DNA of 63,753 bases from contig JAQUVJ010000002.1 in NCBI GenBank assembly GCA_028693395.1, forward strand, positions 1 through 63,753, in the 5' to 3' direction. Each line of letters starts with the position of its first letter. The first letter of the stretch is position 1. The notes under the pieces were generated by a model. The model worked only from the letters and a program-made list of their open reading frames with translations, searched no databases and was not told where the DNA came from. This DNA comes from Candidatus Nanoarchaeia archaeon. Its GTDB lineage: Archaea; Nanobdellota; Nanobdellia; Woesearchaeales; JAQUVJ01. Shown here piece after piece: positions 8,270 through 23,295 of this stretch. A program made the translations under genes and the position numbers.

Positions 8270-9391
8270 TTAATGATTAATAAGTGATTGACAAAATTTA
8301 TACATATAAGATAATCTATTATGATAATTACCTTTTACTATTTCCATTTTCGGATGAGCAGTAAAATCTCTAATATTGAAATTTTGATAATGTTCCAATA
8401 ATACTCCATCTAATTCATCCCGATAATCTTCATGTCTTCTTAGTCCATCACTCACCCATGGAACGCCCTCAAAAGAAAGGAAAAATCTATAATCATACAA
8501 ATCTTTATAATACGCATCATATATTGAATTAAAAAGATTCAATTCGGAGTCGGATATTTCATAAATATCATTTTCATTTTTATACAATCTATAATAGTAA
8601 TAAGTAACTACAATATCGGTATCAAAAAAACACAATCTATTGCAAGTTTTCAATGCATGGTCATTCGCTTCTATTTGCAATCTGATTATATTAAAATAAT
8701 CTTCATCGGTAATATATCTTTCATCATTTACATTTTGTTCTACATATATCCGACCCATTTCTTCGGCCCAAGATGTATGGAATATTTTAGCCAACATTTT
8801 TACCAGAGTAGTTTTTCCTGTTGATTCTGTACCAGTAATAAGAATCTTTTTTGCAAAGTGTTTTCTAGCTGACCCGCAAATATAGTCCCAATATTGCAAA
8901 GGATTTTTTCTTATTTGTGTAGCTGAAATAGGATATCTTGTCATAGAATAATCAAAATATTTAATATCGTACTCTGGAAAATAAGATTTATAAAATTCAA
9001 CATCATTCAATTCTCCAGTAAAAATAGTAAATTTAATATCCGTTGTATAAGGAGTACAATAATCATAAATAAAACTATTCAAGCATTTACTCCATTGAGG
9101 CCACCCAATGGGATATTCTGGCATATCATTAGGTTCCTTCATAATATGAATTTTTATATTATTAAAACCTTTTAATTCAGTTTTCAGCCAACGCAATCTT
9201 GTATCAGCGGAAATATATTTGATATTTGCTTCTTTACATAATCTCATATCTAACTGAATATTGTCGCAAATGATAATATTCAATTGATCACACTGAGAGT
9301 ATGCATTAAAAATATGAGTAAGATGTCCTCGATGTAAAGGAAAAAATTTTCCGACTAATATACCAACATGAAAATCATTATTGTTCATCAT
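8270..9391 (-). CDS. nadR: NadR-like bifunctional NMN adenylyltransferase / ribosylnicotinamide kinase (no HTH domain)
   Basis: GKFFPLHRGHL (HxGH), ISATQIRKNP (ISxxxxR), P-loop ITGTESTGKTTL with NadR-like context. Confidence 0.8.
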   Translation of the reverse strand: MMNNNDFHVGILVGKFFPLHRGHLTHIFNAYSQCDQLNIIICDNIQLDMRLCKEANIKYISADTRLRWLKTELKGFNNIKIHIMKEPNDMPEYPIGWPQWSKCLNSFIYDYCTPYTTDIKFTIFTGELNDVEFYKSYFPEYDIKYFDYSMTRYPISATQIRKNPLQYWDYICGSARKHFAKKILITGTESTGKTTLVKMLAKIFHTSWAEEMGRIYVEQNVNDERYITDEDYFNIIRLQIEANDHALKTCNRLCFFDTDIVVTYYYYRLYKNENDIYEISDSELNLFNSIYDAYYKDLYDYRFFLSFEGVPWVSDGLRRHEDYRDELDGVLLEHYQNFNIRDFTAHPKMEIVKGNYHNRLSYMYKFCQSLINH

Positions 9392-10250
9392 ATATTCTCC
9401 CTTTTTTTAAAATAGTCCATTCTCTTTTTTCTTTTGAATCTTCCGTCCATTTATAATAGCCATAAAAACTATTAATAAGAAAGCCAAGCCACATAAATAC
9501 AATCGGAAGTACCCAAGTAACAGAATTTCTATCATTTAATACAACCAGAATCCACATGAAAATAGTTATAATATTTGTAAGAATCCAAAATATCCATTGT
9601 TGTGAGTATGCCAACGTCATTAGAATCTGACCAATAATCTGTAATACTTCAGTAGATGAATCCAGAATTGGACCAAGTAATGTTATTCCAGTTATTGCTG
9701 TTATACTGGAATATATTGATTCATTTCTTTGCATAATATGAACAAACCAATGATCTACCATAGAAAGAAATATTCCGAATCCAATCAATGCTAGAATAGA
9801 AGTAATTGTAATAATAAATATACCTTGTTTTGTCAATTTTCTAGGCTTGATATATATTCTAGAAAATTTATCCATATGATATTTTTTCCATACAACCCAA
9901 CCAATAAATTGAAATGGCAGAAAAAAGAACCAATTTAAAATCCAATCACCATAATATCCGCTATACCAAGATATTGCTCCATACATAATAGCATTAATTA
10001 TACCCCAGTAGTAATTAGTAATATTTTCTTTTGCTACTAATACTACACATACTATTCCTGTTATAGCAGCTACGGGTGATATAATCCAATTCAATATAAC
10101 ATCAAAAAATGTATCATAAGGAGTTATATATGAAAAATAAAAAGTGGATCCCATAATAAGAGTAGTAATGAAGCCAACCAATATTTTTTCAAATACATTC
10201 CAAGAACTAAAATCCAAAGATTTTTGAATATATTGTATCATTATTTTCAT
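9378..10250 (-). CDS. pnuC: PnuC-like nicotinamide riboside transporter
   Basis: 290 aa, multiple TM helices rich in W/Y (SWYSGYYGDWILNWFFF); overlaps nadR-like gene by 14 nt. Confidence 0.7.
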   Translation of the reverse strand: MKIMIQYIQKSLDFSSWNVFEKILVGFITTLIMGSTFYFSYITPYDTFFDVILNWIISPVAAITGIVCVVLVAKENITNYYWGIINAIMYGAISWYSGYYGDWILNWFFFLPFQFIGWVVWKKYHMDKFSRIYIKPRKLTKQGIFIITITSILALIGFGIFLSMVDHWFVHIMQRNESIYSSITAITGITLLGPILDSSTEVLQIIGQILMTLAYSQQWIFWILTNIITIFMWILVVLNDRNSVTWVLPIVFMWLGFLINSFYGYYKWTEDSKEKREWTILKKGRIYDEQ

Positions 10251-10364: not shown

Positions 10365-10436
10365 AAAACTATTCACCACCCGGGCCGACAGTACGAGAAT
10401 TATCTGATTATTAAAAAACTATTCACCACCCGGGCC
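10365..10436 (+). repeat. tandem 50-bp duplication carrying two CCACCCGGGCC boxes
   Basis: AAAAACTATTCACCACCCGGGCC at 10365-10386 and 10415-10436. Confidence 0.85.
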
Positions 10437-10786
10437 AGCTTGGATTTTTATACAGAATATTCAGATAATAAATTACAATCTATTTATGAAAATGATGGCG
10501 ACGGAAAGACCAAGGTATGGATTGAAACATCGTTGGAGATAGCTCTAGAATGGCTTGTATCACATTATCCGTATCGATAAGGTAGTTCGATATGCTTCAC
10601 TGGTCAAGAACGATTCTGGGTCATTTTAGAGGTATGCGACTGAAAATTCCATAAAATCATTTCTATCATCCTTATAAAGCTCATGTCGTCGGATATAGCT
10701 CTAAAATCAACGCAGAGCTATATCCAGATGAAAGGTAATCTGATACGTCCTAATACAAGAAAATCATTCTACAAGTGTTTTAGAAT
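10437..10786. other. G+C-enriched ORF-free element bracketed by inverted CCACCCGGGCC boxes
   Basis: Boxes 10426-10436 and 10787-10797 (inverted); internal GGATATAGCTCT/AGAGCTATATCC 12-bp inverted repeat (10691-10725) plus third copy GGAGATAGCTCT (10545-10556). Confidence 0.5.
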
Positions 10787-10802
10787 GGCCCGGGTGGATA
10801 TA

Positions 10803-10842
10803 TGAAAATAAGAAGAGAGCGGCTTTTAGGGCCGCTCTCTTC
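10803..10842 (-). terminator. intrinsic terminator of cassette 1
   Basis: 12-bp stem GAAGAGAGCGGC/GCCGCTCTCTTC then T-rich run on minus strand. Confidence 0.8.
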
Positions 10843-10853
10843 ATTCATATTAG

Positions 10854-11459
10854 TTAGTTTATTGAGAAAAGAATGTCAAATCCGAATCCTTTCAACATGT
10901 CCAGAATCTTAGTGTTGGCGGGAGCATACCAAGCCTTGTTTTCAGGACTATACTTTCTTATCGGAAGAGTTTTGACATTCTGAAGAGTCTCCCTGTCAAA
11001 AGAAAACTCTATTTTCAGATAATTCATGTCATCTTTAGCTGACCGAACAAGAGATACCTTTTTGAATACTTCTTTGACAACAGTCTTTCCATCCTCAACA
11101 ACCTTTTTGGAAAAATCAATTTCAGCAAAATTCTTTATAATGCTCTTGGGTATCCACTGATCGACTTTGACGGCTTCGACCTCATCCCTGATCGTCTTGA
11201 CTTGATCTTCGGTAAGAGTTTCAAGAATGACATCCCTTGTTACCCATGAACCCAAGCATTCCGGCCCAATTCCCAGAAGTTTTGATCCTGGGTGAGTGAG
11301 TTTCCGGCCGCATCTAGCACAACGACCATCTTTGGGAATGATACCATTTCCTTTGACATAAACGGCCTTGTCAGATTCTTTCGTTATAACGCCGTTGATG
11401 TTATAAGGTACGTTCATTGCCCGTGCGATCCTCGTGCTGATAACAAAAATTTGATTCAT
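10854..11459 (-). CDS. DUF6011-motif protein with HARP-like C-terminal region
   Basis: True start ATG 11459 after AAGGGGGA SD (track start 11549 translates the leader); CARCGRKLTHPGSKLLGIGPEC; C-terminal KIEFSFDRETLQNVKTLPIRKYSPENKAWYAP. Confidence 0.6.
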   Translation of the reverse strand: MNQIFVISTRIARAMNVPYNINGVITKESDKAVYVKGNGIIPKDGRCARCGRKLTHPGSKLLGIGPECLGSWVTRDVILETLTEDQVKTIRDEVEAVKVDQWIPKSIIKNFAEIDFSKKVVEDGKTVVKEVFKKVSLVRSAKDDMNYLKIEFSFDRETLQNVKTLPIRKYSPENKAWYAPANTKILDMLKGFGFDILFSIN

Positions 11460-11520
11460 ATTAAAATCCCCCTTGGTAGATTGATGTTTGGTCGGGATTG
11501 CTCTTCCAACCAACAAGGAT

Positions 11521-11549
11521 ATTCTATCACGTATCAATCGATCCGTCAA
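11521..11549 (-). promoter_or_regulatory. cassette promoter P1
   Basis: TTGACG-17 nt-TGA-TAGAAT; member of 15-copy family. Confidence 0.75.
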
Positions 11550-11635
11550 TAGGGAAATATGATGTTTATATTTTCAGATAACTATCAACCACCCGGGCCA
11601 ACTCGGATTTTTATATAGAATATTCAGATAATAAA

Positions 11636-11785
11636 TTACTTTTTCCCAAGTACATCTTTATTGAATTTAATAGCTTTTTTAGCAAGATCATAAGCGGCGG
11701 AGGTATTTTCACCAATTTCCATAAAAAAACTATGCATTCCCACTATGAACATAAACCATAGAACATATGTAATATATTCTCGCAT
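11636..11785 (-). CDS. small membrane protein, 49 aa
   Basis: GAAAGGTGAT RBS; MREYITYVLWFMFIVGMHSFF...; below track cutoff. Confidence 0.45.
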   Translation of the reverse strand: MREYITYVLWFMFIVGMHSFFMEIGENTSAAYDLAKKAIKFNKDVLGKK

Positions 11786-11852
11786 TAGATATCACCTTTC
11801 TAATTTTCATAATATAAAGAGGGGAGTTTTCAAGACTCACCTCTATCGGATT

Positions 11853-12167
11853 TTAGACTATGAAAGTAATTCTCAGAAATTTCAGTTTGGCTCCATCAGG
11901 AAGAGTAGTGCTACCCTCGGCCAGTCTTGGACCGGAATATTGAACCACGAAAAGAGTGTCGTCCATGTCCAGTGTTACCGACTCCCTGTTGAACGTGAAT
12001 CCTTCCCAGGAAGAGGCCAGAGAATCGGCCAGTTCCTTATGACCGATAACACTCTTCGGGCTATTTTTTATAATCTCTTCAAGAGTAACAGTTTCAACAC
12101 TCATGCCGTAGTTGTTTTCCGAAATCATATTGAGAGAAAAAGCGTTGGAAACGAGAGTCTTTGCCAT
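11853..12167 (-). CDS. DUF1874 / AcrIII-1-like viral ring nuclease (candidate anti-type III CRISPR)
   Basis: True start ATG 12167 after AAGGAGGA SD; MAKTLVSNAFSLNM..., VIGHKE (catalytic His context), VVQYSGPRLAEG match STIV B116 / SIRV1 gp29 family. Confidence 0.8.
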   Translation of the reverse strand: MAKTLVSNAFSLNMISENNYGMSVETVTLEEIIKNSPKSVIGHKELADSLASSWEGFTFNRESVTLDMDDTLFVVQYSGPRLAEGSTTLPDGAKLKFLRITFIV

Positions 12168-12237
12168 TGTGAAATCCTCCTTAGAAATTGTATTTTGTCG
12201 GTCGGGTCGCCTGTTCGCTCTTCCAACCAACAAGGAT

Positions 12238-12266
12238 ATTCTATCACGTATCAATCAATCCGTCAA
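12238..12266 (-). promoter_or_regulatory. cassette promoter P2
   Basis: TTGACG-17 nt-TGA-TAGAAT. Confidence 0.75.
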
Positions 12267-12482
12267 GCATTAAAATCGATTTTTTTGATGATTAAATTTT
12301 CAAACAACTCAACATCCTTTCAATTATATAGTCTGCATATCGGTGAAAAAATATTTTATAGATAATTCTGAATAATCTAACCATCGCCGCCCCGGGCCAA
12401 CTCGGATTTTTTTGCAGAATATTCGTATAGATTGAAAGCAATAAAAAAGACAACTCCTTTTAAGAGTTGTCTTTATATTCTA

Positions 12483-12647
12483 TTATATTTCAGTCAATTT
12501 CAGAATATGATCTTCCGGGTTCTCGTTCGGTGCAGTATATTTCAACCATTCAAAAAAGTCTATATCATCGCCGTCGATAATTCCGGTAATAACTTCGTCC
12601 ATATAAAGATCCAGAAAGGGGCCAAACTTTATTATAATCGTTGTCAT
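12483..12647 (-). CDS. acidic mini-protein, 54 aa
   Basis: AAGGGGGA SD; MTTIIIKFGPFLDLYMDEVITGIIDGDDIDFFEWLKYTAPNENPEDHILKLTEI; terminator AAGACAACTC/GAGTTGTCTT follows. Confidence 0.6.
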   Translation of the reverse strand: MTTIIIKFGPFLDLYMDEVITGIIDGDDIDFFEWLKYTAPNENPEDHILKLTEI

Positions 12648-12708
12648 TTAAAAATCCCCCTTAGATATTAGATGTTTGGTCGGGATCGCTCTTCCAACCA
12701 ACAAGGAT

Positions 12709-12737
12709 ATTCTATCACGTATCAATCAATCCGTCAA
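12709..12737 (-). promoter_or_regulatory. cassette promoter P3
   Basis: TTGACG-17 nt-TGA-TAGAAT. Confidence 0.75.
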
Positions 12738-12830
12738 GCATTAAAATCGATTTTTTCTATGATTAAATAGTTAGATAATAGCTAAAATCGTTATTGAAGT
12801 AACCTCGGAAAAAACCTATTTTAGAACACA

Positions 12831-13020
12831 ACCACGTAAAGTCTTGCAAACACTGGATTCTTAGATTTCTTGTGAATAAGATAACATATTTATAAAGCCT
12901 TGCAAACACTAGCTTTTTTATACACGATCACTAATCTCCTATGTGTCGCAACGAAAAATGGATAAATGGTATAAAGCTACACTTGCAATCTAAAACCGCG
13001 ACAGGATTGAAATTAGGAAT
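12831..13020 (+). ncRNA. hairpin element copy a (candidate structured RNA)
   Basis: Two CGTAAAGYCTTGCAAACACTRG motifs then GATCACTAATCTCC...GCGACAGG...AATTAGG hairpin; paralog of 15542-15780 and 17815-18055. Confidence 0.4.
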
Positions 13021-13192
13021 TGTATATATTATTATAAACAATGCGGCCAGGGTGGATAAAATTGTATATGCTTTTAAAACAATTATGATTATATGAAAAT
13101 GATTATAATTGATATATATTCTAAAAAAACGATTATCAACCACCCGGGCCAGCTTGGATTTTTTCACAGAATATTCATACAAATTGAAGATA

Positions 13193-13240
13193 ATAAAAAA
13201 AAGACTGTTTATTTTTCTCGAAATAAACAGTCTGAAAAAA
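13193..13240. terminator. bidirectional intrinsic terminator
   Basis: AGACTGTTTAT/ATAAACAGTCT 11-bp stem between A8 and A-run. Confidence 0.75.
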
Positions 13241-13243
13241 CTA

Positions 13244-13417
13244 TTAAATTGCATATGTCATTTTTTCGGAAATAAGATAACTTGTATTAATACCTGGATA
13301 ATAAAATTCCATCCATTCCAAAAAACTAAAAATAGTCTCATTATCTTCTACTTCTTGAAGCCAATCATGATAATAATAACTATCTTCAAGAATCTGATAT
13401 GAAGAAGAGCTAGGCAT
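13244..13417 (-). CDS. acidic aromatic-rich mini-protein, 57 aa
   Basis: GGGGGG SD overlapping end of upstream ORF; MPSSSSYQILEDSYYYHDWLQEVEDNETIFSFLEWMEFYYPG... Confidence 0.55.
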   Translation of the reverse strand: MPSSSSYQILEDSYYYHDWLQEVEDNETIFSFLEWMEFYYPGINTSYLISEKMTYAI

Positions 13418-13418
13418 A

Positions 13419-13727
13419 TTAAAAACCCCCCTTATAAAGATTAGTCAGATTATTTTCTACAATTCTCTTGAAACGTCTGGCGAGATTACGATTCGCCATA
13501 TAACGACGTTTCACGGGATTGACAGACTTCTCCAATTTTTCTCTCTTTTTGCCCGTCCAATCCTCAGGGCGAACAAACTCACGACGGACCTGATGATTAG
13601 TGAGTTTCTTGTAATAAGAATTGTCAGAAATATCGTCAGTATTCCGAACAATTTTTTTTGTATCAGCTTTCACTTCGATGCCCATTCCGTCCGTAAAAAT
13701 ATAGCTCTTTCGATAAGTATTTGCCAT
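13419..13727 (-). CDS. basic hypothetical protein, 102 aa
   Basis: AAGGAGGG SD, first gene of P4 cassette. Confidence 0.7.
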   Translation of the reverse strand: MANTYRKSYIFTDGMGIEVKADTKKIVRNTDDISDNSYYKKLTNHQVRREFVRPEDWTGKKREKLEKSVNPVKRRYMANRNLARRFKRIVENNLTNLYKGGF

Positions 13728-13799
13728 ATTAAAAACCCTCCTTGAAAGATAGATGTTTGGTCGGGAACGCTTGACTTCGCTCTTCCAACCAACAAGGAT

Positions 13800-13828
13800 A
13801 TTCTACCATGCTTTATCGAATCCGTCAA
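13800..13828 (-). promoter_or_regulatory. cassette promoter P4
   Basis: TTGACG-17 nt-TGG-TAGAAT. Confidence 0.75.
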
Positions 13829-13910
13829 TAGGGAAATATGATGATTAAATTTTCAGATAATTTATATTCTGGATATTATATTCTGTATTCTGTATTCTGT
13901 ATACACAAAC

Positions 13911-14123
13911 GCGGAATAAATAAATTTTTCTTTTTAGGAGTATTGTGCGGAAAATATAAATTTTTATTAGATGGAATATTGTGCGGAAAATAAATTTTTA
14001 TTAGATGGATATTATGCAAAATAAATGAATTTTTATTAGATGGATAATTTATGCGAAATAAATGAATTTTTATTAGATGGGTATTTATGCGAAAAATATA
14101 AATTTTCGTGTTAGAGGTATGAT
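13911..14123 (+). repeat. six tandem 33-37-bp iteron-like repeats
   Basis: GCGRAAAATAAATGAATTTTTATTAGATGGATAWTTAT units head to tail, no spacers. Confidence 0.85.
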
Positions 14124-14139
14124 TAAAAAGATTCTAATC

Positions 14140-14194
14140 TTTTGCGTAACGTAGTGAAGCAAAAGAGTTTTTGCGTAACGCAGTGAAGCAAAAA
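14140..14194 (+). repeat. two tandem hairpin repeats
   Basis: TTTTGCGTAACGYAGTGAAGCAAAA twice (TTTTGC/GCAAAA stems). Confidence 0.8.
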
Positions 14195-14217
14195 CCTGAT
14201 CGGCTAAAATATTTTTG

Positions 14218-14354
14218 GTCGGCGCAATATATTTTCCTCCAAACTCTTTTTTAACGACTTATATTTTTTCAAACTATTTATAATTATTCAAACTATTTAT
14301 AATTTTTAAAGGCTAAGTACTTTTAACTTTATCATCTTTTTCTATTTTTACTAA
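14218..14354 (+). repeat. long direct repeat, copy 1
   Basis: GTCGGCGCAATATATTTTCCTCCAAACTCTTTTTTAACGACTTATATTTTTT... about 90 percent identical to 14580-14696. Confidence 0.85.
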
Positions 14355-14431
14355 TTCGTCAATTCGTAATATAGTTCTTAGGAATCATCTTTTTCGGTTA
14401 AAAGATGAGTCTTAGGAATCATCTTTTAGAC

Positions 14432-14461
14432 TTGACAAACTATACTATAGTATGATATAAT
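14432..14461 (+). promoter_or_regulatory. near-consensus sigma70 promoter with no downstream ORF
   Basis: TTGACA (14432-14437)-18 nt-TGA-TATAAT (14456-14461), points into ORF-free repeat DNA. Confidence 0.6.
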
Positions 14462-14579
14462 AATTAAAAAAAAACTTTTATTTTAGGAATATTTTTAGAA
14501 ATGCATTCAGAAGGTATGATATGAAATTTTTATAATCGTTCTCAAAATATAAAAATTGCGTCGACCAAAAATTTATCCA

Positions 14580-14696
14580 GTCGGCGCAATATATTTTCCT
14601 CCAAACTCTTTTTTAACGACTTATATTTTTTAAACTATTTATAAAATTTTAAAGGCAAGTACTTTTAACTTTATCATCTTTTTCTATTTTCACTAA
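14580..14696 (+). repeat. long direct repeat, copy 2
   Basis: Paralog of 14218-14354; followed by AATTCCTAAGA/TCTTAGGAATT 11-bp hairpin. Confidence 0.85.
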
Positions 14697-14773
14697 ATTA
14701 TACATAATTCCTAAGATTCATTTTTATATGAGTCTTAGGAATTATTTTATGAACAAAAATATTTCAGAAAATT

Positions 14774-14932
14774 TTAGCTATTATCAATCATATCTTGAGT
14801 ATAAAATGTCTTGCTAGTTTCATAATCACATTCCATACAAAATACTTTGACTGTTATGGAATTTTCTTCAGGATTAGCACAATAATCAAAATCTGTTTCT
14901 TTTCCGCATACAGGACAAAAAACACTATTCAC
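14774..14932 (-). CDS. zinc-ribbon mini-protein, 52 aa
   Basis: GAAAGGAG RBS, GTG start; CPVC...CMEC. Confidence 0.5.
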   Translation of the reverse strand: MNSVFCPVCGKETDFDYCANPEENSITVKVFCMECDYETSKTFYTQDMIDNS

Positions 14933-14956
14933 TACACAACACTCCTTTCAAAATAT

Positions 14957-14988
14957 AAAGAGGGAATTTTTTAGATAATTCCCTCTTT
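14957..14988 (-). terminator. intrinsic terminator
   Basis: AAAGAGGGAATT/AATTCCCTCTTT 12-bp stem. Confidence 0.7.
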
Positions 14989-14999
14989 CATATAAATTT

Positions 15000-15368
15000 C
15001 TATTCCTTGTTCAGTTCAATAGAATTGTAAGTATTATTTATGTCATTCAGATATCGAAGAATATTTGTTGCTTCTTTTGTATTCTTCTTTGTATTAGCAT
15101 CCAAAATAACTATTGGTATCATAATATCATTCTGAGCAACAATTCCCATGTCCCAGAGAGTATAAAGAGTAGTCAATTCCGAACCGTAATTCATTGACCA
15201 CAAAACCCCTTCTATTTCCGAAAAATGAAATACGACTGGTGAGTTCTTGTTGTCCAAAACAAATCTTTCAAACTTCTTGTTAATTTTGCAATCCAAATCC
15301 GTTTTAATGTCACCCTTTTTAATCATACTAGCTAAAGTACCGATGTTTAGAACCTTCGTCTTCATCAT
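15000..15368 (-). CDS. hypothetical protein, 122 aa
   Basis: AAGGGGGA SD 9 nt before ATG; P5 cassette. Confidence 0.7.
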   Translation of the reverse strand: MMKTKVLNIGTLASMIKKGDIKTDLDCKINKKFERFVLDNKNSPVVFHFSEIEGVLWSMNYGSELTTLYTLWDMGIVAQNDIMIPIVILDANTKKNTKEATNILRYLNDINNTYNSIELNKE

Positions 15369-15435
15369 CTGTGAAAATCCCCCTTATAAAGATATTTTGT
15401 CAGTCGGATCGTTTACTCTTCCCTCCGACTGCTAT

Positions 15436-15464
15436 ATATTATCACGGTTTTTTCAATCCGTCAA
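15436..15464 (-). promoter_or_regulatory. cassette promoter P5 (variant)
   Basis: TTGACG-17 nt-TGA-TAATAT; leader hairpin CAGTCGGA/TCCGACTG. Confidence 0.7.
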
Positions 15465-15541
15465 GTAGTATTTTTCATGATTAAATATTCTGATAAATAA
15501 AAACGTCGTATTGACCAAGGAAAATCGTTAATTTTTCAATG

Positions 15542-15780
15542 ACCACGTAAAGCCTTGCAAATACTGGGTTTTTATATTTCTTGTGAATGAAATATCAAAC
15601 TCGTAAACTGTTGCTACGACTACATTTTTTCTATACGATCACTAATCTCTTCTGTATCGGTCTGTTTTTCCATAAAACAGTATAACTGCACACGTCTAAA
15701 ATTTTCATTGCGACACAGAGGAGATTAGTAATGTTTAGACCGCTCTAACATTTATAAACTGTTGATATTACTGGATTTTT
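15542..15780 (+). ncRNA. hairpin element copy b (candidate structured RNA)
   Basis: 15-bp stem ACTAATCTCTTCTGT (15641-15655) / ACAGAGGAGATTAGT (15715-15729) with one U-G pair valid only on plus-strand RNA; flanked by three TTGCAA-type 22-mers. Confidence 0.45.
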
Positions 15781-15875
15781 CAAGTCGATAAATTCTAAAA
15801 AACATCATGCTAAAAAATCTCATTGACCCCCTGGCCTTCCCGAAGAATGCAGAATATTCCGTCATGTAGAATATA

Positions 15876-15912
15876 ATAAAAAAGACGGCTCTTTTATGGG
15901 AGTCGTCTTTAT
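15876..15912 (-). terminator. intrinsic terminator
   Basis: AAGACGGCTC/GAGTCGTCTT stem with flanking A/T runs. Confidence 0.65.
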
Positions 15913-15920
15913 ATTTTTAA

Positions 15921-16325
15921 TTAAAGAGTAATTTCAGCCATTTCGGGAATTTCAACCCTTACCTTCCTCGGTCTGCCTCTAGGTCTCTTTTCAGCCACCG
16001 GAGCATTCGGATCCACAGGCTTCCTCGGTCTACCTCTAGGTCTCTTCTCAGCCACAGGTGCATTCGGATCAATCATCTTCTTTGGTCTCCCCCTTCCTCT
16101 CTTTTCTACTACAAGAAACCCGCTATCAACCAATGTATTGACAAAATCAATTACATTCGGCATATTCAGAGTTGTAGCAATATTCTCAACAACTACCCCC
16201 TCGTCCTTTGGAACACTGAAAAATACCGCCTTGAAATTCTCGTCCTTATTAAAACGAGCATTTTGAATAAGATTGAAAGTATTCGCCTTATTTCCTCTCT
16301 TCACTACTGCCTTTACGTTCATCAT
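15921..16325 (-). CDS. AT-hook repeat DNA-binding protein
   Basis: Start ATG 16325 after AAGGAGG; three RGRP AT-hook cores (KRGRGRPKK, KRPRGRPRK twice) in tandem PVAEKRPRGRPRKxVDPNA repeats. Confidence 0.7.
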   Translation of the reverse strand: MMNVKAVVKRGNKANTFNLIQNARFNKDENFKAVFFSVPKDEGVVVENIATTLNMPNVIDFVNTLVDSGFLVVEKRGRGRPKKMIDPNAPVAEKRPRGRPRKPVDPNAPVAEKRPRGRPRKVRVEIPEMAEITL

Positions 16326-16400
16326 CACCATTACCTCCTTGAATTTTAATTTCTTTTCAATTTCTTTATGATTATATCTTATCATAAAGAAATTCGTTTG

Positions 16401-16718
16401 TCAAGCTCTTTTTTCAAACTTTTTAATCAATCCATCCAAAAAGCTATTTTCTCTAACTATTTTGGAGATTGCTGTTTCAATATGAGAATCCAACAATCCC
16501 TCCGCATAAATATCGTTGTAAAATTCTCTTTCCGATGTTACCTGATAATATTTGTTTACGGCCCAGAAAATATCCCAAGTGATTCTTTTTCTGAAATTCT
16601 GAAAATCCTTGGAATTAAAAACTTTTTCAATATGAGCCGCTGTTTCTGATGGATGTTTTCCTACAAAATCATTGATCTCATTTTTAATCTTCTCATAAAG
16701 TGTCTTGCTCATTTTCAT
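16401..16718 (-). CDS. hypothetical protein, 105 aa
   Basis: GAGGGGGA SD; first gene of P6 cassette. Confidence 0.7.
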   Translation of the reverse strand: MKMSKTLYEKIKNEINDFVGKHPSETAAHIEKVFNSKDFQNFRKRITWDIFWAVNKYYQVTSEREFYNDIYAEGLLDSHIETAISKIVRENSFLDGLIKKFEKRA

Positions 16719-16770
16719 TCAGAAATCCCCCTCTATTTTGTTTTCAAGTGTCTTCCGAACCAACAAGGAT

Positions 16771-16799
16771 ATTCTACCATGCTTCAATCAATCCGTCAA
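16771..16799 (-). promoter_or_regulatory. cassette promoter P6
   Basis: TTGACG-17 nt-TGG-TAGAAT. Confidence 0.75.
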
Positions 16800-16904
16800 T
16801 AGGTTATTTTCGATTTTCTTGTAGATTAAATTTTCAAACAACTTCCCACCACCCGGGCCAGACGTACAAAAATTTTTTCAATATTCAAATTATCAGAATA
16901 TAAG

Positions 16905-16941
16905 AAAAAAGCGACTCCCTTAAAAGAGTCGCTTTTTTTTC
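16905..16941. terminator. intrinsic terminator
   Basis: AGCGACTC/GAGTCGCT stem between A6 and T8. Confidence 0.75.
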
Positions 16942-16944
16942 TAT

Positions 16945-17298
16945 TTAAAATTCTCTTCTCAAATAATAAGTGCAACCAAAACCTTCACCCAATGTTTCAT
17001 CATCATTATAAGGATACAGAATACCTCTTACTTCCGTTATTCTTGCCGTAACTGTCCCCCAACAGGTTACATTCTGAGTTTTTTTACTATTCAATTTTCG
17101 AGAAGTGATTTTATACTGAAAAGCTGGATAGATGATATTTTTTGCGTTGTATCTAATTTCAAATTTAGTTCCAACAAAAGCTTGATCAACAAATACATTC
17201 GATTCTGTATTCCACTCATCACCCTTTACAGAATCGATCATCCAAACTTCCCCGGCGAACTCAACGATGGGTTTTTTGCTCATATCGATTTTTTTCAT
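16945..17298 (-). CDS. hypothetical protein, 117 aa
   Basis: True start ATG 17298 after AAGGGGGA SD; track start 17373 translates the conserved leader. Confidence 0.7.
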   Translation of the reverse strand: MKKIDMSKKPIVEFAGEVWMIDSVKGDEWNTESNVFVDQAFVGTKFEIRYNAKNIIYPAFQYKITSRKLNSKKTQNVTCWGTVTARITEVRGILYPYNDDETLGEGFGCTYYLRREF

Positions 17299-17363
17299 TA
17301 TAAAATCCCCCTTGAAAATAGATGTTTTGGTCGGGATCGCTCTCTCTCTCAACCAACAAGGAT

Positions 17364-17392
17364 ATTCTACCATAAAAAAATCAATACGTCAA
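17364..17392 (-). promoter_or_regulatory. cassette promoter P7
   Basis: TTGACG-17 nt-TGG-TAGAAT. Confidence 0.75.
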
Positions 17393-17449
17393 TAAGAAAA
17401 TATGATGTTTATATTTTCAAATAACTCCCCACCATAATAAACAGTACAA

Positions 17450-17737
17450 AAATTATCAAACTATTCAAAATAAAAATAATATATTAAAAAAACAAGTTAA
17501 TTGAAAAAACCCAAAATTTTTGAATACGTTAATTATACCTAAAATAGAAAAAACTATGAAAGTTAATTTAAAAAAACCTTTTTTTTTTGGTAAATTGTCA
17601 GATAATTTAGATTAGTCGGAAGATATTATTAAAAACAAAATTTTATCAATTATTTCATTATTTCATTAATTCATCATAAAAATATAAATTCTATAAAGAT
17701 TCAGATTATAGGATATATATTTTTTTGTCTTTAAATT
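17450..17737 (+). repeat. long dispersed direct repeat, copy 1
   Basis: Blocks AAACTATTCAAAATAAAAATAATATATTAAAAAAACAAGTTAATTGAAAAAACCC and TTCTATAAAGATTCAGATTATAGGATATATATTTTTTTGTCTTTAAATTC recur at 18810-19003. Confidence 0.8.
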
Positions 17738-17814
17738 CGGATAACTATCTCGTTCATTATACCATTTCAGATTTCAAAATTTCCCCTAGAAAAACCTATT
17801 TCATAATCTAATCT

Positions 17815-18055
17815 CGTAAAGCCTTGCAAACACTAGCTTTCTCAACTTCTCATTTTAAAAAATCCAACCTTGTAAAACCTTGCTATCACTAGCTTTTTTG
17901 ACCACGATCACTAATCTCTTCTGTACGGGGTTTTTAATACACATATCCATACAATCTTGCGTCTTCATTTCTAAAAACGCGACACAGAGCAAAATAGTAA
18001 TCGTAAGCCTTGTCTAACATTTATAAAACCTTGCAATTACTAGGTTTTTTATTTT
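17815..18055 (+). ncRNA. hairpin element copy c (candidate structured RNA)
   Basis: Same layout as copies a and b; arms 17910-17924 / 17984-17998 (12 of 15 pairs) plus inner CGGGGTTTTTA/TAAAAACGCG pairing. Confidence 0.4.
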
Positions 18056-18375
18056 TGATATTCCAGAAAAAAGATATATAAAAACTTTTACACCCGGGCC
18101 AAACGTACAAAAATTTTTTTAATATTCAGACTATCAAAATATAATAAAAAATGACCCTTTAAATTTTTCTTCTGAAAGAGCAGGGTCAGACTCTTCCAGC
18201 AACACTCATTTTTATAAATACTATGAATACCAAAATGAGAAAATATTCATAGCTTGAAACGATTCTTAAAAATTAAAATATTTAGATAATTGGAAATGCA
18301 GAATCAACATCTCCAATTACCTGTCTTTTTATAATACCTCATAAACAATAAAAGACAAAATGTTTACGGGATAAA

Positions 18376-18422
18376 TTAAAAAATTTTAATACGAGTAGAA
18401 AGGAGGATAACTACTCGTATTA
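18376..18422 (-). terminator. terminator downstream of tRNA-Leu
   Basis: 12-bp stem TAATACGAGTAG/CTACTCGTATTA then T-run on minus strand; second 13-bp hairpin at 18428-18461. Confidence 0.7.
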
Positions 18423-18547
18423 AAAGTGAAATGATTATTATTTCGAGCTAATAATCATTTCAATGGAACAAGAAATACCGTTGCGTTGTGCTTGTATCGC
18501 CGCATGGGGTCGGCAAAATTAAACTTTCTGATATTAAATTTTTTAAA

Positions 18548-18634
18548 TGGTGCGAGAGGGGGGACTCGAACCCCCAATCCCCTCCGGGCGAAGCATTTTA
18601 AGTGCTTTGCGTATCCCAATTCCGCCACTCTCGC
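18548..18634 (-). tRNA. tRNA-Leu (anticodon UAA), class II, CCA encoded
   Basis: Acceptor GCGAGAG/CTCTCGC, U8, D-arm GCGGAATTGGGATACGC, anticodon stem AAGCA/TGCTT with loop CTTAAAA, long variable arm, T-arm GGGGG-TTCGAGT-CCCCC, A-CCA end. Confidence 0.9.
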
Positions 18635-18681
18635 ACTTTTCTCTTTATTCACTTGTCAAGGTCGTTTCGCTCAACATGTAT

Positions 18682-18710
18682 ATAATACCATAGGATCAAT
18701 AAGATGTCAA
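18682..18710 (-). promoter_or_regulatory. promoter for tRNA-Leu
   Basis: TTGACA-17 nt-TGG-TATTAT, about 40 nt upstream of the tRNA 5' end. Confidence 0.65.
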
Positions 18711-18809
18711 TAACTAAAATCAATGTTTAAATTATCAAAAAACTTACTTACCCTTCAAACCATCCCGAAGAATGCAGAATATTCCGTCAACCACCCAGGC
18801 CATCGCCCA

Positions 18810-19003
18810 GAAATTATTAAACTATTCAAAATAAAAATAATATATTAAAAAACAAGTTAATTGAAAAAACCCTAAATTTCTTGAAAAATTGAATTGAATG
18901 GAAAATGACATAAAAATATAAATTGAAACAAAAAATATAAAATTTCATATTTATTCTATAAAGATTCAGATTATAGGATATATATTTTTTTGTCTTTAAA
19001 TTC
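18810..19003 (+). repeat. long dispersed direct repeat, copy 2
   Basis: Paralog of 17450-17737; bracketed by boxes at 18791-18801 and 19011-19021. Confidence 0.8.
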
Positions 19004-19055
19004 CCCTCATCCACCCGGGCCAACTAAATATAAATTTCAGATAATTTTCTATATA

Positions 19056-19094
19056 ATAAAAATGCGCTATCCCTCAAAGATAGCGCATTTTTTA
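19056..19094. terminator. intrinsic terminator
   Basis: ATGCGCTATC/GATAGCGCAT stem between A5 and T6. Confidence 0.75.
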
Positions 19095-19099
19095 GATTA

Positions 19100-19945
19100 T
19101 TAAACTATTTCATAATCCCATTTTTCCCAGTTATTTATATTGTACAATTTCCCTTTCCAATTAAACTTTATTTTATTATCCATATCAACTACAACAAATG
19201 TATCAGCTTTCTCTCCTGCAATCGTTACATAACCATTCAATATTCTAATTCTTTCACCATGATTCAATTTTCTCTTTTTTGTATTTTGTTTCATGGAAGT
19301 ACTGGAATATCCAGTCGTTTCAACCTTTTTTCTCCAATTATATGAACGCTCTTTTTCCTCATATGAATAATTATCAGCCAAATCCAAATTATCCAACTTA
19401 TTAAACATTTCCATCGGCATTCGTATTAAATGTTCAAATGTCAACGTATCCATATAATCAGAATACTCAGGAATCAAAGTAATATCAGCATTATGAATAG
19501 TTTTTTTAATTTTCATTTTCATCGCTGCTGCAACACGATTTCCCATAACATCCAAATACAAGATATAACCTTCACGACCACCCTTATGAATAAATATATC
19601 AATTATAATATTTTTTCCAAACAAATCCATTATAGCCTCTTTCAATGTCTTTCCCCTATAACTAACATTAAAACGAGAATTCAACCTATCATAAAACGTT
19701 TCAATAATTACTTCCCTTTTCTCTTCTCTCTTGGTACTAGTAGCTTTTTCATATCCCCTATAGCTACCAGGCATATATCCAGATACCAAATACTTTTTCA
19801 TTATACCATACTCTTCATTGAGCATCTTCATCATCTCGTCATTCCCACCACGATCAGGATGATGTATTCTTACTAATCTCCTATACTCATTCTTCAATAC
19901 AGAATCATCTTTGATCACAGAAGTATTAAAAAACTGCATCATCAT
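19100..19945 (-). CDS. J-domain (DnaJ-like) protein, 281 aa
   Basis: N-terminal YRRLVRIHHPDRGGNDEMMKMLNEEY with HPD tripeptide; rest unrecognised. Confidence 0.75.
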   Translation of the reverse strand: MMMQFFNTSVIKDDSVLKNEYRRLVRIHHPDRGGNDEMMKMLNEEYGIMKKYLVSGYMPGSYRGYEKATSTKREEKREVIIETFYDRLNSRFNVSYRGKTLKEAIMDLFGKNIIIDIFIHKGGREGYILYLDVMGNRVAAAMKMKIKKTIHNADITLIPEYSDYMDTLTFEHLIRMPMEMFNKLDNLDLADNYSYEEKERSYNWRKKVETTGYSSTSMKQNTKKRKLNHGERIRILNGYVTIAGEKADTFVVVDMDNKIKFNWKGKLYNINNWEKWDYEIV

Positions 19946-20178
19946 CGACCCCCCACAAGAATAAACTGATTCACTCTTTTCATCGGAATGACTGAACTAT
20001 TAAACTGTTCAATACTCATCCCAATTATCTCATCATCACTAACTACAATTACCTGATTGTTTTTATCATTGCTATATGTAAAACGAAATGACACCCTATC
20101 CGACCCCATTATCCCACGAAAAACTCCCCTAATTCTCGGATTCTTCGGATCAGTCTTTTTCATCTCATACTTCATCAT
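19942..20178 (-). CDS. hypothetical protein, 78 aa
   Basis: True start ATG 20178 after AGAGGAG; stop overlaps J-domain gene start (ATGA). Confidence 0.6.
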   Translation of the reverse strand: MMKYEMKKTDPKNPRIRGVFRGIMGSDRVSFRFTYSNDKNNQVIVVSDDEIIGMSIEQFNSSVIPMKRVNQFILVGGR

Positions 20179-20207
20179 CTCATCTCCTCTCATCAACCAA
20201 CAAGGAT

Positions 20208-20236
20208 ATTCTATCATATTAAAATCAATCCGTCAA
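20208..20236 (-). promoter_or_regulatory. cassette promoter P8
   Basis: TTGACG-17 nt-TGA-TAGAAT; leader truncated (no hairpin). Confidence 0.75.
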
Positions 20237-20272
20237 TAAGAAAATATGATGTTTATATTTTCAGATAACTTA

Positions 20273-20479
20273 AAAATGAACTTTTCCCTGATAGGTACTT
20301 AAAACTTTTTCCATTTGATTACTTTTCCCTGATAGGTACTTAAAACTTTTTCCAGCTTATAAACTATTCAAAATATCCAAAATTAAAGAAACCATTGCAA
20401 TTACCAGCTTTATCAAAATTTTACAACCCTTCTGAAAATAAAATGAACTTTTCCCTGATAGGTACTTATAAACTTTTTT
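20273..20479. repeat. three copies of a 33-40-nt CRISPR-repeat-like unit
   Basis: ACTTTTCCCTGATAGGTACTTAAAACTTTTTCC at 20280-20312, 20321-20353, 20447-20478; gaps 8 nt and about 93 nt. Confidence 0.8.
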
Positions 20480-20497
20480 AAAAATTTATAAATTCTT

Positions 20498-20629
20498 TGC
20501 AACAGTGTTGCATTTTAATATAAATTCTTTGCAACAGTGTTGCATTTTAATATAAATTTATATTAAAAAATAATATAAAACTCATAGACCGTTGCAAACA
20601 CTATATAAAAGTTTTGCAACAGTGTTGCA
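20498..20629. promoter_or_regulatory. three palindromic operator-like sites
   Basis: TGCAACAGTGTTGCA at 20498-20512, 20530-20544, 20615-20629. Confidence 0.6.
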
Positions 20630-20724
20630 TTAAAAGTCGGTGTGTATACAGAATACTTTACACAAAATTATCCACAAAAATATATTACACTATATGTAGC
20701 ATTAAAAAAAATATATTACACTAA

Positions 20725-21000
20725 TCCTTAGAGCATTATAGAGCTTAGAGCATCGTATAGAGCTATCCTTAGAGCATCGTATAGAGCTATCCTTAGAGCT
20801 TAGAGCTATCCTTAGAGCATCGTATAGAGCATTATAGAGCTTAGAGCATCGTATAGAGCATTATAGAGCTTAGAGCTATCCTTAGAGCATTGTATAGAGC
20901 TTAGAGCTATCCTTAGAGCATTGTATAGAGCTATCCTTAGAGTTATTTTTAGAGTATTGTATAAGGACGTATAGAGTATTGTATAGAGTATAAGATATAG
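20725..21000 (+). repeat. mosaic minisatellite built on TAGAGC
   Basis: 20 exact TAGAGC in about 215 bp, spaced 7/10/12 bp in units TTAGAGC, ATTATAGAGC, ATCGTATAGAGC, TATCCTTAGAGC; decays to TAGAG toward 21000. Confidence 0.9.
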
Positions 21001-21220
21001 AATTATTTAAAGAATTAGGTATATGTATTAAATTGTATGGATATTGATTATTGCTGTATTTGTTTAATTTATGGGAAATATTTGTTTTATATGGGAATTA
21101 GGTATATGTATTAAATTGTGTGGGGAGTTTTGTATACAATATAACCGTTGGAAACACTGATAAAATGCTGATAAAATGAAAATGGAATTTATTTTGAAAA
21201 AGTTTTTGTTTATATGAAAA

Positions 21221-21245
21221 AGAGCGGGTTTTGGGGACCCGCTCT
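21221..21245. terminator. intrinsic terminator (family copy 1 of 3)
   Basis: AGAGCGGGT/ACCCGCTCT stem, A5/T5 flanks; same hairpin at 22727-22751 and 25994-26018. Confidence 0.8.
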
Positions 21246-21291
21246 TTTTCTATCGTATATTATTTAGATTTAGATTTCAAAATTCTCTCCT

Positions 21292-21465
21292 TTATATTGA
21301 TGAACTGATTTCTTGTTTTACTTTTTCGTTAGAGTAGAACTGGCTCTTTATTTCTATATGATTGCAATTTTTATTCATACATATTTTTTTGTATGTAAAC
21401 TTATCTACTTTCTCCAGAATGGAATAGTCCATATTACTTTGACATGATGGGCATCTAAAAATCAT
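21292..21465 (-). CDS. zinc-ribbon mini-protein, 57 aa
   Basis: AAGGAGGAG RBS; MIFRCPSCQSN...CMNKNC; distal gene of hicA-like cassette. Confidence 0.55.
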   Translation of the reverse strand: MIFRCPSCQSNMDYSILEKVDKFTYKKICMNKNCNHIEIKSQFYSNEKVKQEISSSI

Positions 21466-21556
21466 TATTCTATCTCCTCCTTATATGTAAAACGATAAAA
21501 TCTATAAACTCTTCCAATGACATTTCCTGTATTTGTTTCTTAGTCATAATCATATC

Positions 21557-21778
21557 TTATTTATAGACCGCTTCAAACTCCTTCATATTAATTCCATTTT
21601 CTTTGAGAATCCGGCGAAGAAGTGTAGTCTTTACTTCGCCGCTTCTGGGAAATACAACCATTTTTGATGGATCGTATGTTTTTTTCATTTTTTGATGTCC
21701 GGTCCCTCCATTGTCGACATATCCGAGTTTTTCAAAAGCTTTTTTTACTCTGTCGCCGCGATAATCAAAACGTGCCAT
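21557..21778 (-). CDS. hicA: HicA-like mRNA interferase toxin, copy 1 (no HicB seen)
   Basis: 73 aa; KLGY..NGGTGHQKM...VVFPRSGEVKTTLLRRILKENGI fits HicA pattern (G.GSxH...P.H...l...l+.Ilkq.Gi). Confidence 0.7.
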   Translation of the reverse strand: MARFDYRGDRVKKAFEKLGYVDNGGTGHQKMKKTYDPSKMVVFPRSGEVKTTLLRRILKENGINMKEFEAVYK

Positions 21779-21833
21779 CTATATTACCCCCTCAAGATTT
21801 TATGTGTTGGTCGTTCTATCAACCAACAAGGAT

Positions 21834-21862
21834 AGTATATCACACTCTCGTCAATCCGTCAA
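21834..21862 (-). promoter_or_regulatory. cassette promoter P9
   Basis: TTGACG-17 nt-TGA-TATACT. Confidence 0.75.
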
Positions 21863-21967
21863 GAGCTTTTCTAAAGAATTTATTTTCAAAAAACTTTTCT
21901 TGTTTATACACTCATCATCATCAATTATATAGACTGTATATCGGTGAAAAAAAGTTATTTAATTATT

Positions 21968-22007
21968 GAAAAAGGGATGAATTTATTAAAAACTCATCCC
22001 TTTTTTT
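21968..22007. terminator. intrinsic terminator
   Basis: AAAGGGATGA/TCATCCCTTT stem then T7. Confidence 0.75.
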
Positions 22008-22013
22008 GATTAT

Positions 22014-22604
22014 TTATTCCATATAAACACTACCATCTTCGTAAAATTCAAACCCATTTTTATCCAAATATTTTATCAAATAAGAATCTGATGATTTATC
22101 TTTATATTTTTCTTTTAGAATGTCACCTACTACTAAAGTATAATAATGAAACAGTGAAAGAACTGCATTGACGAATTCATTTACATCATTTTCTATTGTA
22201 TATATATCTGCTTCTTCAAGAAGAATTTTAAAATTTCCAAGAGTTTCATACAACATAAAACTTCTTGAAGTGATAATAATATCAAAATCTTTAAATGCTC
22301 CTTCATAAAAATACCTTTTCATTTTATCTTTAATTCTAGCATGATCATTTGAAAGAATTTTCATTGCATCGGAAGCTTTAATTCTTCCATTAAAAGAGCA
22401 ATATGAAAGACTTTTTTTGTCCATAGTAAAAAATACATCTGCAATATGAACAACACTAGGAATATATGTAAGGGCGTGTTTTATATCCTCATTATCCAAT
22501 TCAATAGAATCAACACCGTATTTTTTAAATGTTTCAATCGCATAATTCTTTGCTTCGTCGGAAAGTTCATTGATGGTATACAGATCTAAAGTGATAGTTC
22601 TCAT
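22014..22604 (-). CDS. hypothetical protein, 196 aa
   Basis: GAGGAGG SD; P10 cassette; N-terminal LYTINELSDEAKNYAIE and C-terminal FEFYEDGSVY recall plasmid/phage accessory proteins, family not identified. Confidence 0.7.
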   Translation of the reverse strand: MRTITLDLYTINELSDEAKNYAIETFKKYGVDSIELDNEDIKHALTYIPSVVHIADVFFTMDKKSLSYCSFNGRIKASDAMKILSNDHARIKDKMKRYFYEGAFKDFDIIITSRSFMLYETLGNFKILLEEADIYTIENDVNEFVNAVLSLFHYYTLVVGDILKEKYKDKSSDSYLIKYLDKNGFEFYEDGSVYME

Positions 22605-22659
22605 TGTATTACCTCCTCAAAATTTTTATATGCTGGCCGTTTTATCAACCAACAAGGAT

Positions 22660-22688
22660 AGTATATCACACTCTCGTCAATCCGTCAA
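22660..22688 (-). promoter_or_regulatory. cassette promoter P10
   Basis: TTGACG-17 nt-TGA-TATACT. Confidence 0.75.
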
Positions 22689-22726
22689 GAACTTTTTTAA
22701 AGAATTTATTTTCAGATAATAAAAAA

Positions 22727-22751
22727 AGAGCGGGTTTTGGGGACCTGCTCT
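22727..22751. terminator. intrinsic terminator (family copy 2)
   Basis: AGAGCGGGT/ACCTGCTCT stem with A7/T5 flanks. Confidence 0.75.
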
Positions 22752-23289: not shown

Positions 23290-23295
23290 TCCTTT

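Follow-up and report, generated by a model that had tools for sequence, protein, structure and literature searches.

The window analysed here, a stretch of 63,753 bases, is the first part of a contig of 73,112 bases (C5) and carries fifteen sigma-70-type promoter-leader cassettes, all on the minus strand and each driving a small gene with a strong ribosome site. In total, eighteen such cassettes were found in the bin to which the contig has been assigned: the other three lie on a second contig of 7.1 kb (C35), where a profile of the promoter part detects two clear cassettes and a weak one, and the same profile retrieves nothing comparable from the other 46 contigs. The fifteen cassettes of C5 (P1-P15, Table 1) have in common TTGACGGATTGA, a 17-nt spacer ending in TG and a TAnAAT-like -10 element, and the order of a cassette runs from an AT-rich upstream element through these promoter parts to a hairpin, a spacer and a strong Shine-Dalgarno site. 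A stricter pattern that includes the start of the leader gives ten matches, all on the minus strand of C5, and none in the reversed control. Several cassettes are preceded by separate terminator-like hairpins with T-runs. Among the products of the cassette genes are ArdA, two HicA-like proteins and, behind P2, one STIV_B116/AcrIII-1-like match that falls below the Pfam cut-off.

Several repeats occur in the region of the cassettes. In an ORF-poor part of the window (13918-14122 and 14206-14750), a unit of about 36 nt is repeated five times head to tail, another of about 350 nt occurs twice, and palindromic CTTAGGAATCATCTT motifs are present as well. A perfect plus-strand TTGACA-18-TATAAT promoter lies amid these repeats at 14432; they could represent a replication origin or a regulatory array. 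A second ORF-poor region, extending from P8 to the P9 gene (20273-20990), is characterized by three TGCAACAGTGTTGCA palindromes and three copies of a 38-nt repeat, with a dense array of short CTTAGAGC/TATAGAGC repeats at 20725-20990. Moreover, CCGGGCCARCTYGG followed by ATTTTT, an element with a terminator-like score, is present in four plus-strand copies (10430-10443, 11593-11606, 12392-12405 and 13144-13157) located upstream of or between minus-strand cassettes, and these elements might stop antisense transcription.

The origin of the contig bears on how these signals are to be read. The G+C content of C5 is 26.6%; that of the bin, which amounts to 1.12 Mb, is about 21-22%, its other contigs having mostly 20-24%. 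The gene content of C5 is phage-like and includes a RecA/UvsX-like protein, an ATP-dependent DNA ligase and two T4-type RNA ligases, along with a PARP-like protein, NAD-salvage genes, an SLH-domain protein and a tRNA-Leu. The RecA protein is at most 32% identical to those of cultured phages, the top matches being Bacillus, Moorella and Clostridium phages. The bin contains an archaeal marker, the TATA-binding protein, and a search of it for sigma-70 region 2 found none. C5 is read as a mis-binned bacterial phage because of its perfect -35/-10 promoters, strong Shine-Dalgarno sites, intrinsic terminators and bacterial-type genes; in other words, C5 and C35 look like bacterial phage contigs that were placed by composition into an archaeal metagenome-assembled genome. 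The phage is an uncharacterised low-GC bacteriophage, and its host is probably a low-GC Gram-positive bacterium. An RNase J-like gene is present in the bin, in which searches for RNase E/G and RNase Y gave neither above cut-off, and these results describe the archaeal genome, not the phage host.

Two further features of the contig can be mentioned. A NadR-like kinase/adenylyltransferase, a PnuC-type NMN transporter, a NAMPT/NAPRTase-like enzyme and a WGR-domain PARP-like protein are coded in the window at 8270-10250, 29658-30845 and 56393-57886, and their co-occurrence suggests NAD salvage or counter-defence. The far end of the contig, at about 72313-72553 and hence outside the window, is much richer in G+C than the rest and may be a mis-join or foreign DNA.

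Leader hairpins and their position

Structure prediction with RNAfold places a hairpin as the 5' helix in ten of the fifteen cassettes of the window (P1-P5, P7, P9, P10, P12 and P13) and, when C35 is included, in twelve of eighteen, the two clear C35 copies having AGUCG/CGACU stems. An earlier note on this DNA had denied a hairpin to P6, P8, P11, P14 and P15, and the predicted folds bear this out. The outer helices comprise 5-10 pairs and enclose a part of 6-20 nt, for which at least five unrelated sequences occur among the cassettes; the loops had previously been put at 10-20 nt, a range that is too narrow when loop and inner part are counted together. Two types of leader can be distinguished, namely type A, which begins ATCCTTGTTGGTTG... 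and accounts for eight hairpins, and type B, which begins ATAGCAGTCGG.... In P1, the 10 nt between the arms are made up of an AA bulge, an upper stem of two pairs and a GCAA loop.

Most of the individual arms had been described correctly. Specifically, those of P1 lie exactly at 11506-11513 and 11488-11495, as proposed, and the arm sequences given for P2, P3, P4, P5, P9, P10, P12 and P13 match the DNA. In the case of P7, the 5' arm had been equated with UUGGUUGG, but it actually reads UUGGUUG followed by A and forms seven pairs. As for P9, P10 and P12, the arm letters stand and the length of six pairs does not, as the stems extend to 8-9 pairs (GUUGGUUG/CGRCCRRC).

Table 1. Promoters, predicted leader hairpins and associated genes of the cassettes in the window (SD, Shine-Dalgarno site, numbered from the predicted transcript start)
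Cassette	Strand	-35 start	Promoter	Hairpin	Stem (5' arm / 3' arm)	Leader and gene
P1	-	11549	11521-11549	11488-11513	UUGGUUGG / CCGACCAA, 8 pairs	start codon 11459
P2	-	12266	12238-12266	12196-12232	9-10 pairs, 3' arm CCGACCGAC(A), 17 nt between arms	STIV_B116/AcrIII-1-like match (below cut-off), gene 11853-12167
P3	-	12737	12709-12737	12676-12701	as P1 except GCGA loop	
P4	-	13828	13800-13828	13757-13792	8 pairs, 20 nt between arms including a 5-pair upper stem	
P5	-	15464	15436-15464	15401-15431	CAGUCGGA / UCCGACUG, 8 pairs	type B
P6	-	16799	16771-16799		5'-arm sequence ATCCTTGTTGGTT kept, no 3' arm	leader 46 nt; SD +32
P7	-	17392	17364-17392	17327-17356	UUGGUUG / CGACCAA, 7 pairs	
P8	-	20236	20208-20236		5'-arm sequence kept, no 3' arm	SD about +13
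P9	-	21862	21834-21862	21805-21828	(U)GUUGGUUG / CGACCAAC(A), 8-9 pairs, 6-nt loop	HicA-like gene 21557-21778 (-)
P10	-	22688	22660-22688	22631-22654	3' arm CGGCCAGC, three G-U pairs	
P11	-	23924	23896-23924		no hairpin	SD about +6
P12	-	25956	25928-25956	25899-25922	3' arm CGACCGGC, three G-U pairs	ArdA gene 25369-25872
P13	-	26335	26307-26335	26279-26300	GUCGG / CCGAC, 5 pairs	type B; HicA-like gene 26027-26248 (-)
P14	-	26770	26742-26770		no hairpin	SD about +12
P15	-	27037	27009-27037		no hairpin	weaker family member; SD about +14

The position of the hairpin is constant. In all twelve cases, and across two different arm sequences, the first nucleotide of the stem is the 5th to 8th one downstream of the -10 hexamer, which, by the usual promoter spacing of 7 nt, predicts stems beginning at about -2 to +2 of the transcript start. 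The first base is predicted to be a G, the 7th after the -10 element, and the hairpin would therefore be located at the very 5' end of the message. The earlier note had placed it about 5 nt downstream of the transcription start site; with the start predicted from the usual spacing, the stem moves to about +1 or +2.

The Shine-Dalgarno site lies outside the stem, at +31 to +52 of the predicted start, in the twelve cassettes with a hairpin, and masking of this site was rejected on this ground. In four of the six cassettes without a hairpin the site is found at +6 to +14, the exceptions being P6 and the C35 copy termed C35c (+43). Downstream of the 3' arm, the leaders are A/C-rich (e.g., AAACAUC) and devoid of a U-run in all twelve hairpins; none of them was picked up by scans for terminators, and an intrinsic terminator or attenuator was rejected, as no U-run stands behind the stem.

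Pairing, strand bias and variation of the stems

The pattern GTYGG-N4-30-CCRRC occurs on the minus strand of C5 at ten promoter-proximal sites (14 overlapping matches) and elsewhere on the contig at one unrelated G+C-rich site near its end; shuffled sequences give 1.3 +/- 1.5 matches on both strands together. The cassettes are paralogues and, therefore, this motif count reflects duplication and not independent origin. When the first 9 nt were kept fixed and the remaining nucleotides, up to the 45th at most, were shuffled with their composition preserved, six of the twelve hairpins beat the shuffles at p<0.05 (P2, P4, P5, P9, P10 and P12; p = 0.003-0.043), and the other six, with p = 0.12-0.41, are not unusually stable for their composition.

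A strand bias of the pairing is apparent from the predicted folds. Over the same first 45 nt or fewer, the energies of the sense strand range from -5.0 to -16.8 kcal/mol, and in eleven of the twelve hairpins the more stable fold is that of the sense strand, P13 being equal on both strands. The gap is widest in hairpins with many G-U pairs: sense and antisense values are -10.3 and -0.6 kcal/mol for P10, -10.0 and -2.0 for P12, and -16.8 and -6.7 for P2. Type-A stems contain 13 G-U cells, that is, a U-G at position 13 in eight out of eight and five more, and for every one of them the proposal that they would become C-A on the other strand proves correct. Accordingly, the idea of a strand-specific hairpin acting at the RNA level is plausible in the light of these modelled energies, which support the view that the full stem would form only in the minus-strand transcript, or in that DNA strand alone.

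The latter alternative would point to a role at the level of DNA, in which the inverted repeat belongs to a mobile cassette of the kind known as promoter-early stem-loop (PeSL) and acts as a hairpin of single-stranded DNA, as a hot spot of recombination or by attenuating transcription that reads through from upstream. A precedent is offered by the PeSL cassettes of T4-type phages, in which a sigma-70-like early promoter is combined with a stem-loop (PMC2839356). Hints of exchange are also present in C5: the HicA-like proteins of P9 and P13 are 92% identical and yet encoded behind different leader types, and a contig of sequencing run X4 joins 12665 back to 12215, within cassettes and with sides of at least 131 letters. 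Other joints fall near cassette borders; most of their sides, however, measure only 20-38 letters, and mis-joins are possible because the cassettes are repeats longer than the word size of the assembler. Moreover, pairing through G-T on one strand is explained equally well by RNA, the lack of a U-run after the stem speaks against an intrinsic terminator, and the spacing of the arms, which varies from 6 to 20 nt, does not suit a dimeric DNA-binding site, so that a dimeric DNA operator was rejected. On balance, a DNA-level role appears highly improbable.

The substitutions within the stems had been presented as G-U covariation. It is correct that they keep the pairing; as evidence of selection they are weak, since the changes are one-sided A/G transitions opposite U. 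In particular, the arms of the eight type-A hairpins differ in just five cells, at positions 8, 9 and 12, and all are 3'-arm A/G differences opposite U. The 5' arm of this type is composed entirely of G and U (the 3' arm of A and C plus one G), and therefore any transition in the 3' arm keeps the pairing. Among the strain differences, about 70% are transitions (run X2, 143 of 206; run X4, 111 of 147), so that five pair-keeping changes out of five would be expected by chance with a probability of about 0.17.

Better evidence of covariation comes from the comparison of the two leader types, which differ at all positions from 3 to 6 after the -10 element and yet both pair. Two-sided changes are found only between the types, at three positions: position 6 is U-A in P2, P9, P10 and P12 and A-U in P5 and both C35 copies; position 9 is U-A in six hairpins, U-G in two and C-G in four; and position 12 is U-A, U-G or A-U. 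Over positions 6-14 of the twelve hairpins, 82.4% of the cells are paired, compared with 75.7 +/- 1.9% when the 3' letters are shuffled among the sequences; the observed pairing was reached by none of 2000 shuffles and the covariation score by 42 of 2000, in a procedure that ignores relatedness. This two-sided signal rests on one split, type A against type B, among paralogues.

An alignment with MAFFT left the 3' arms of short and long forms unaligned. For the four sequences that are free of gaps, the true register is 91.7% paired, against 14-61% in slid registers, and the covariation counts are not above those of shuffles, 244 of 500 of which reach the observed value. A covariance model built on four sequences found P2 (E 0.0017), P1 and P3 (0.11) and P7 (0.3), but neither P4 and P5 nor the two C35 copies, and it also picked up terminators. 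Its alignment was left out of the counts because of these missed hairpins and terminator matches.

Strain variation provides an additional view of the stems. Part of the region is present in 20 public runs, none of which is listed as RNA, and contigs from four of these were compared. Among the 40 of 366 differences that were listed, P5 is the sole hairpin with strain variants: the P5 region is changed at 15402, 15408, 15414, 15442 and 15447 in all four runs and at 15415 in three of them. Of the variants that fall in the hairpin, two disrupt the A-U pairs at either end of the reference stem and two are in the loop, the core GUCGG/CCGAC being unchanged in all four runs. With all six variants applied, the four of the hairpin among them, the fold predicted from the G at position 7 changes from -9.4 to -13.3 kcal/mol, the gain in stability being due to a new GGG/CCC upper stem.

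All these observations bear on the question of whether the hairpin is no more than a passenger of cassette duplication, that is, an ancestral inverted repeat that is retained through youth or homogenisation by recombination, with its pairing unselected. In keeping with such an origin, whole leaders can be aligned from the upstream element through the Shine-Dalgarno site, P2 and P3 are nearly identical from about -60 into the loop, and so are P9, P10 and P12. The within-type changes, all of them transitions, were unable to break pairing, the four-sequence counts described above do not exceed shuffles, the hairpin has been lost in six of the eighteen cassettes, and the 5' arm persists without a partner in P6 and P8. 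A mere passenger is nevertheless hard to reconcile with the fact that types A and B both pair despite two-sided changes at three positions, and that the arms persist while the loops have come to differ in sequence and in length (6-20 nt). Furthermore, C>T and G>A changes are common between strains, yet no core G-C pair has turned into G-U, and the P5 variants retain a stable fold. Taken together, these data make an unselected hairpin unlikely.

Putative role of the hairpin

A protein-binding RNA site, recognised by a phage or host factor for antitermination (boxB/nut-like), for shut-off of early messages or for cutting by a nuclease, would be consistent with the occurrence of the hairpin on many early transcripts, in the manner of a regulon tag. 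Moreover, GNRA tetraloops (GCAA or GCGA) stand over an AA bulge in P1, P3 and P7, the string GAAGAG(C) recurs in the loops of P1-P5, and the phage codes for two HicA-like putative RNases. The loops as a whole are unconserved, however: those of P9, P10 and P12 read AUAGAA or AUAAAA, and those of P13 and the C35 copies are unrelated, so that a boxB-like site is a poor fit, given that neither length nor sequence of the loop is conserved across cassettes. Most units appear to have their own terminator, with a promoter of its own for the next, which renders antitermination unneeded, and the hairpins have no Rfam match at gathering score or at E<=1. Finally, RNase III needs stems longer than 5-10 pairs, and the stems described here fall below that length, on the basis of which an RNase III site was rejected. 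A protein-binding site is, in consequence, a distinctly unlikely explanation.

The variability of the loops, which differ in sequence and span 6-20 nt, thus fits better with a generic structural role than with a sequence-specific site. Among the roles offered by the earlier note, stabilisation of the mRNA 5' end is the best, albeit putative, fit. Specifically, we propose, with a probability of roughly one half, that the hairpin protects early, largely anti-defence mRNAs as a stem-loop at their 5' terminus, within a promoter-leader cassette that resembles the PeSL of T4-type phages; where transcription starts, which kind of host is infected and how stability is affected are all inferred in this proposal. 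The early mRNAs would be transcribed by the sigma-70-type RNA polymerase of the host from the duplicated cassettes. The hairpin would then pair the first nucleotides of the transcript and leave no single-stranded 5' end for the enzymes of decay, denying access to an RppH-type pyrophosphohydrolase and, subsequently, to RNase J1 or RNase E. As a result, the short early messages, several of them with anti-defence functions, would be longer-lived. Bacterial messages, and strongly so those of Bacillus subtilis, gain stability when their 5' end, or a position close to it, is occupied by a hairpin, a ribosome or a protein, and the RppH of B. subtilis requires at least two unpaired 5' nucleotides (PMC3997798).

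The either/or distribution of the hairpin and of an early Shine-Dalgarno site among the cassettes fits 5' protection; deletion of a hairpin would also shorten the leader and give the same pattern. The hairpin is dispensable, as six of the eighteen cassettes do without one, two of which (P6 and C35c) have long leaders. In addition, P6 and P8 keep the 5'-arm sequence without its partner, and thus the sequence must be held by something besides pairing, the candidates being a promoter or initial-transcribed function and gene conversion.

If the protective reading holds, an uncultured phage fits its first messages with a built-in 5' shield, and several of the shielded messages carry anti-restriction and anti-CRISPR-like genes. 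The combination of shield, strong promoter and ribosome site would represent a reusable cassette, which would be of use for expressing genes in low-GC Gram-positive hosts and would help to locate early or anti-defence genes in related metagenomic phages. No long-standing question is opened by this reading, given that stabilising 5' hairpins and repeated early-promoter cassettes are both known. A bolder version can be formulated, in which the unit of promoter, hairpin and Shine-Dalgarno site would be a mobile cassette of a Gram-positive-type phage that swaps ArdA, AcrIII-1-like and HicA-like genes within and between strains, as a functional analogue of PeSL, with the hairpin doubling as a tag for a phage factor that times the stability or shut-off of the early anti-defence set; in this full form we regard it as very unlikely.

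Comparison with known systems

Homologous cassettes were found in this bin and nowhere else in the collections searched. In Rfam, the only match at gathering score is the tRNA-Leu, and at E<=1 none of the matches in 10800-27100 is on a leader hairpin, the sub-threshold ones being mostly terminator-like hairpins. A blastn comparison of 10800-12800 with phage records gave no match. Searches of viral contigs with IUPAC patterns for the -10 element plus 5' arm, for -35/-10 and for the upstream element returned 97, 1 and 0 stretches, respectively, and no cassette; the -35/-10 pattern returned 42 stretches from metagenome contigs, none with the leader, and the pattern of -10 element plus 5' arm returned 91 single, unrelated stretches from genome contigs. 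In 40 relatives and 400 genomes of the order to which the bin belongs, matches were at chance level only, and locus searches seeded with proteins (the DNA ligase and the HicA-like pair) retrieved no relatives. Likewise, a literature search on leader hairpins of phage early promoters, limited in extent and hence no proof of absence, yielded nothing more specific than the systems compared below. As a separate observation, another low-GC metagenomic element (26-32% G+C) has repeated double promoters, TTGACGTATTGAC...TGnTATAAT, after a AATAATAAATATTAAAATAA upstream element, and its leaders are purine-rich and have no hairpin.

In terms of function, the closest systems are the 5' stabilising stem-loops of Escherichia coli ompA and papA and of the B. 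subtilis aprE leader, with which the leaders of C5 share a short and stable hairpin placed no more than a few nucleotides from the mRNA 5' end, this end being predicted in the present case. There is no sequence relation to these leaders; the hairpin of C5 and C35 exists in twelve copies within a duplicated phage promoter cassette, and its stabilising effect is putative. A promoter-linked hairpin at +1 of abundant phage messages is also known from the gene 10 leader of T7, where it is thought to raise mRNA stability. The T7 leader differs from those of C5 in its sequence and in belonging to a late promoter of the T7 RNA polymerase, with no family of multi-copy cassettes. The boxB element of the lambda nut sites is likewise a small, promoter-proximal RNA hairpin, and GNRA-type loops occur in three of the cassettes described here; the loop of boxB, however, is conserved, is read by the N protein, is accompanied by boxA and is present about twice per genome, whereas in the cassettes the loops vary among twelve copies.

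In terms of genome architecture, the closest systems are the PeSL cassettes of T4-type phages (PMC2839356, PMC4122927). There, the stem-loops are mostly located between or over the -35 and -10 elements, are rich in polyG/polyC and have been shown to terminate transcription; here, in contrast, the stem-loop is part of the transcript, lies at its predicted 5' end and lacks a U-run, with separate terminators lying upstream, and the phage is a different one, with Gram-positive-like signals and no sequence homology. The position of the PeSL stem-loop is nonetheless variable and can be downstream of the -10 element, G-T pairs occur in it, and the cassettes flank small orphan genes and recombine with each other (PMC2839356); in C5, an exchange of cassettes independent of the genes is hinted at. 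What the two systems share is a strong, repeated early promoter of the sigma-70-like kind whose upstream part is AT-rich, next to which lie a stem-loop containing G-T or G-U pairs and a Shine-Dalgarno site, the flanked genes being small and mostly of unknown function.
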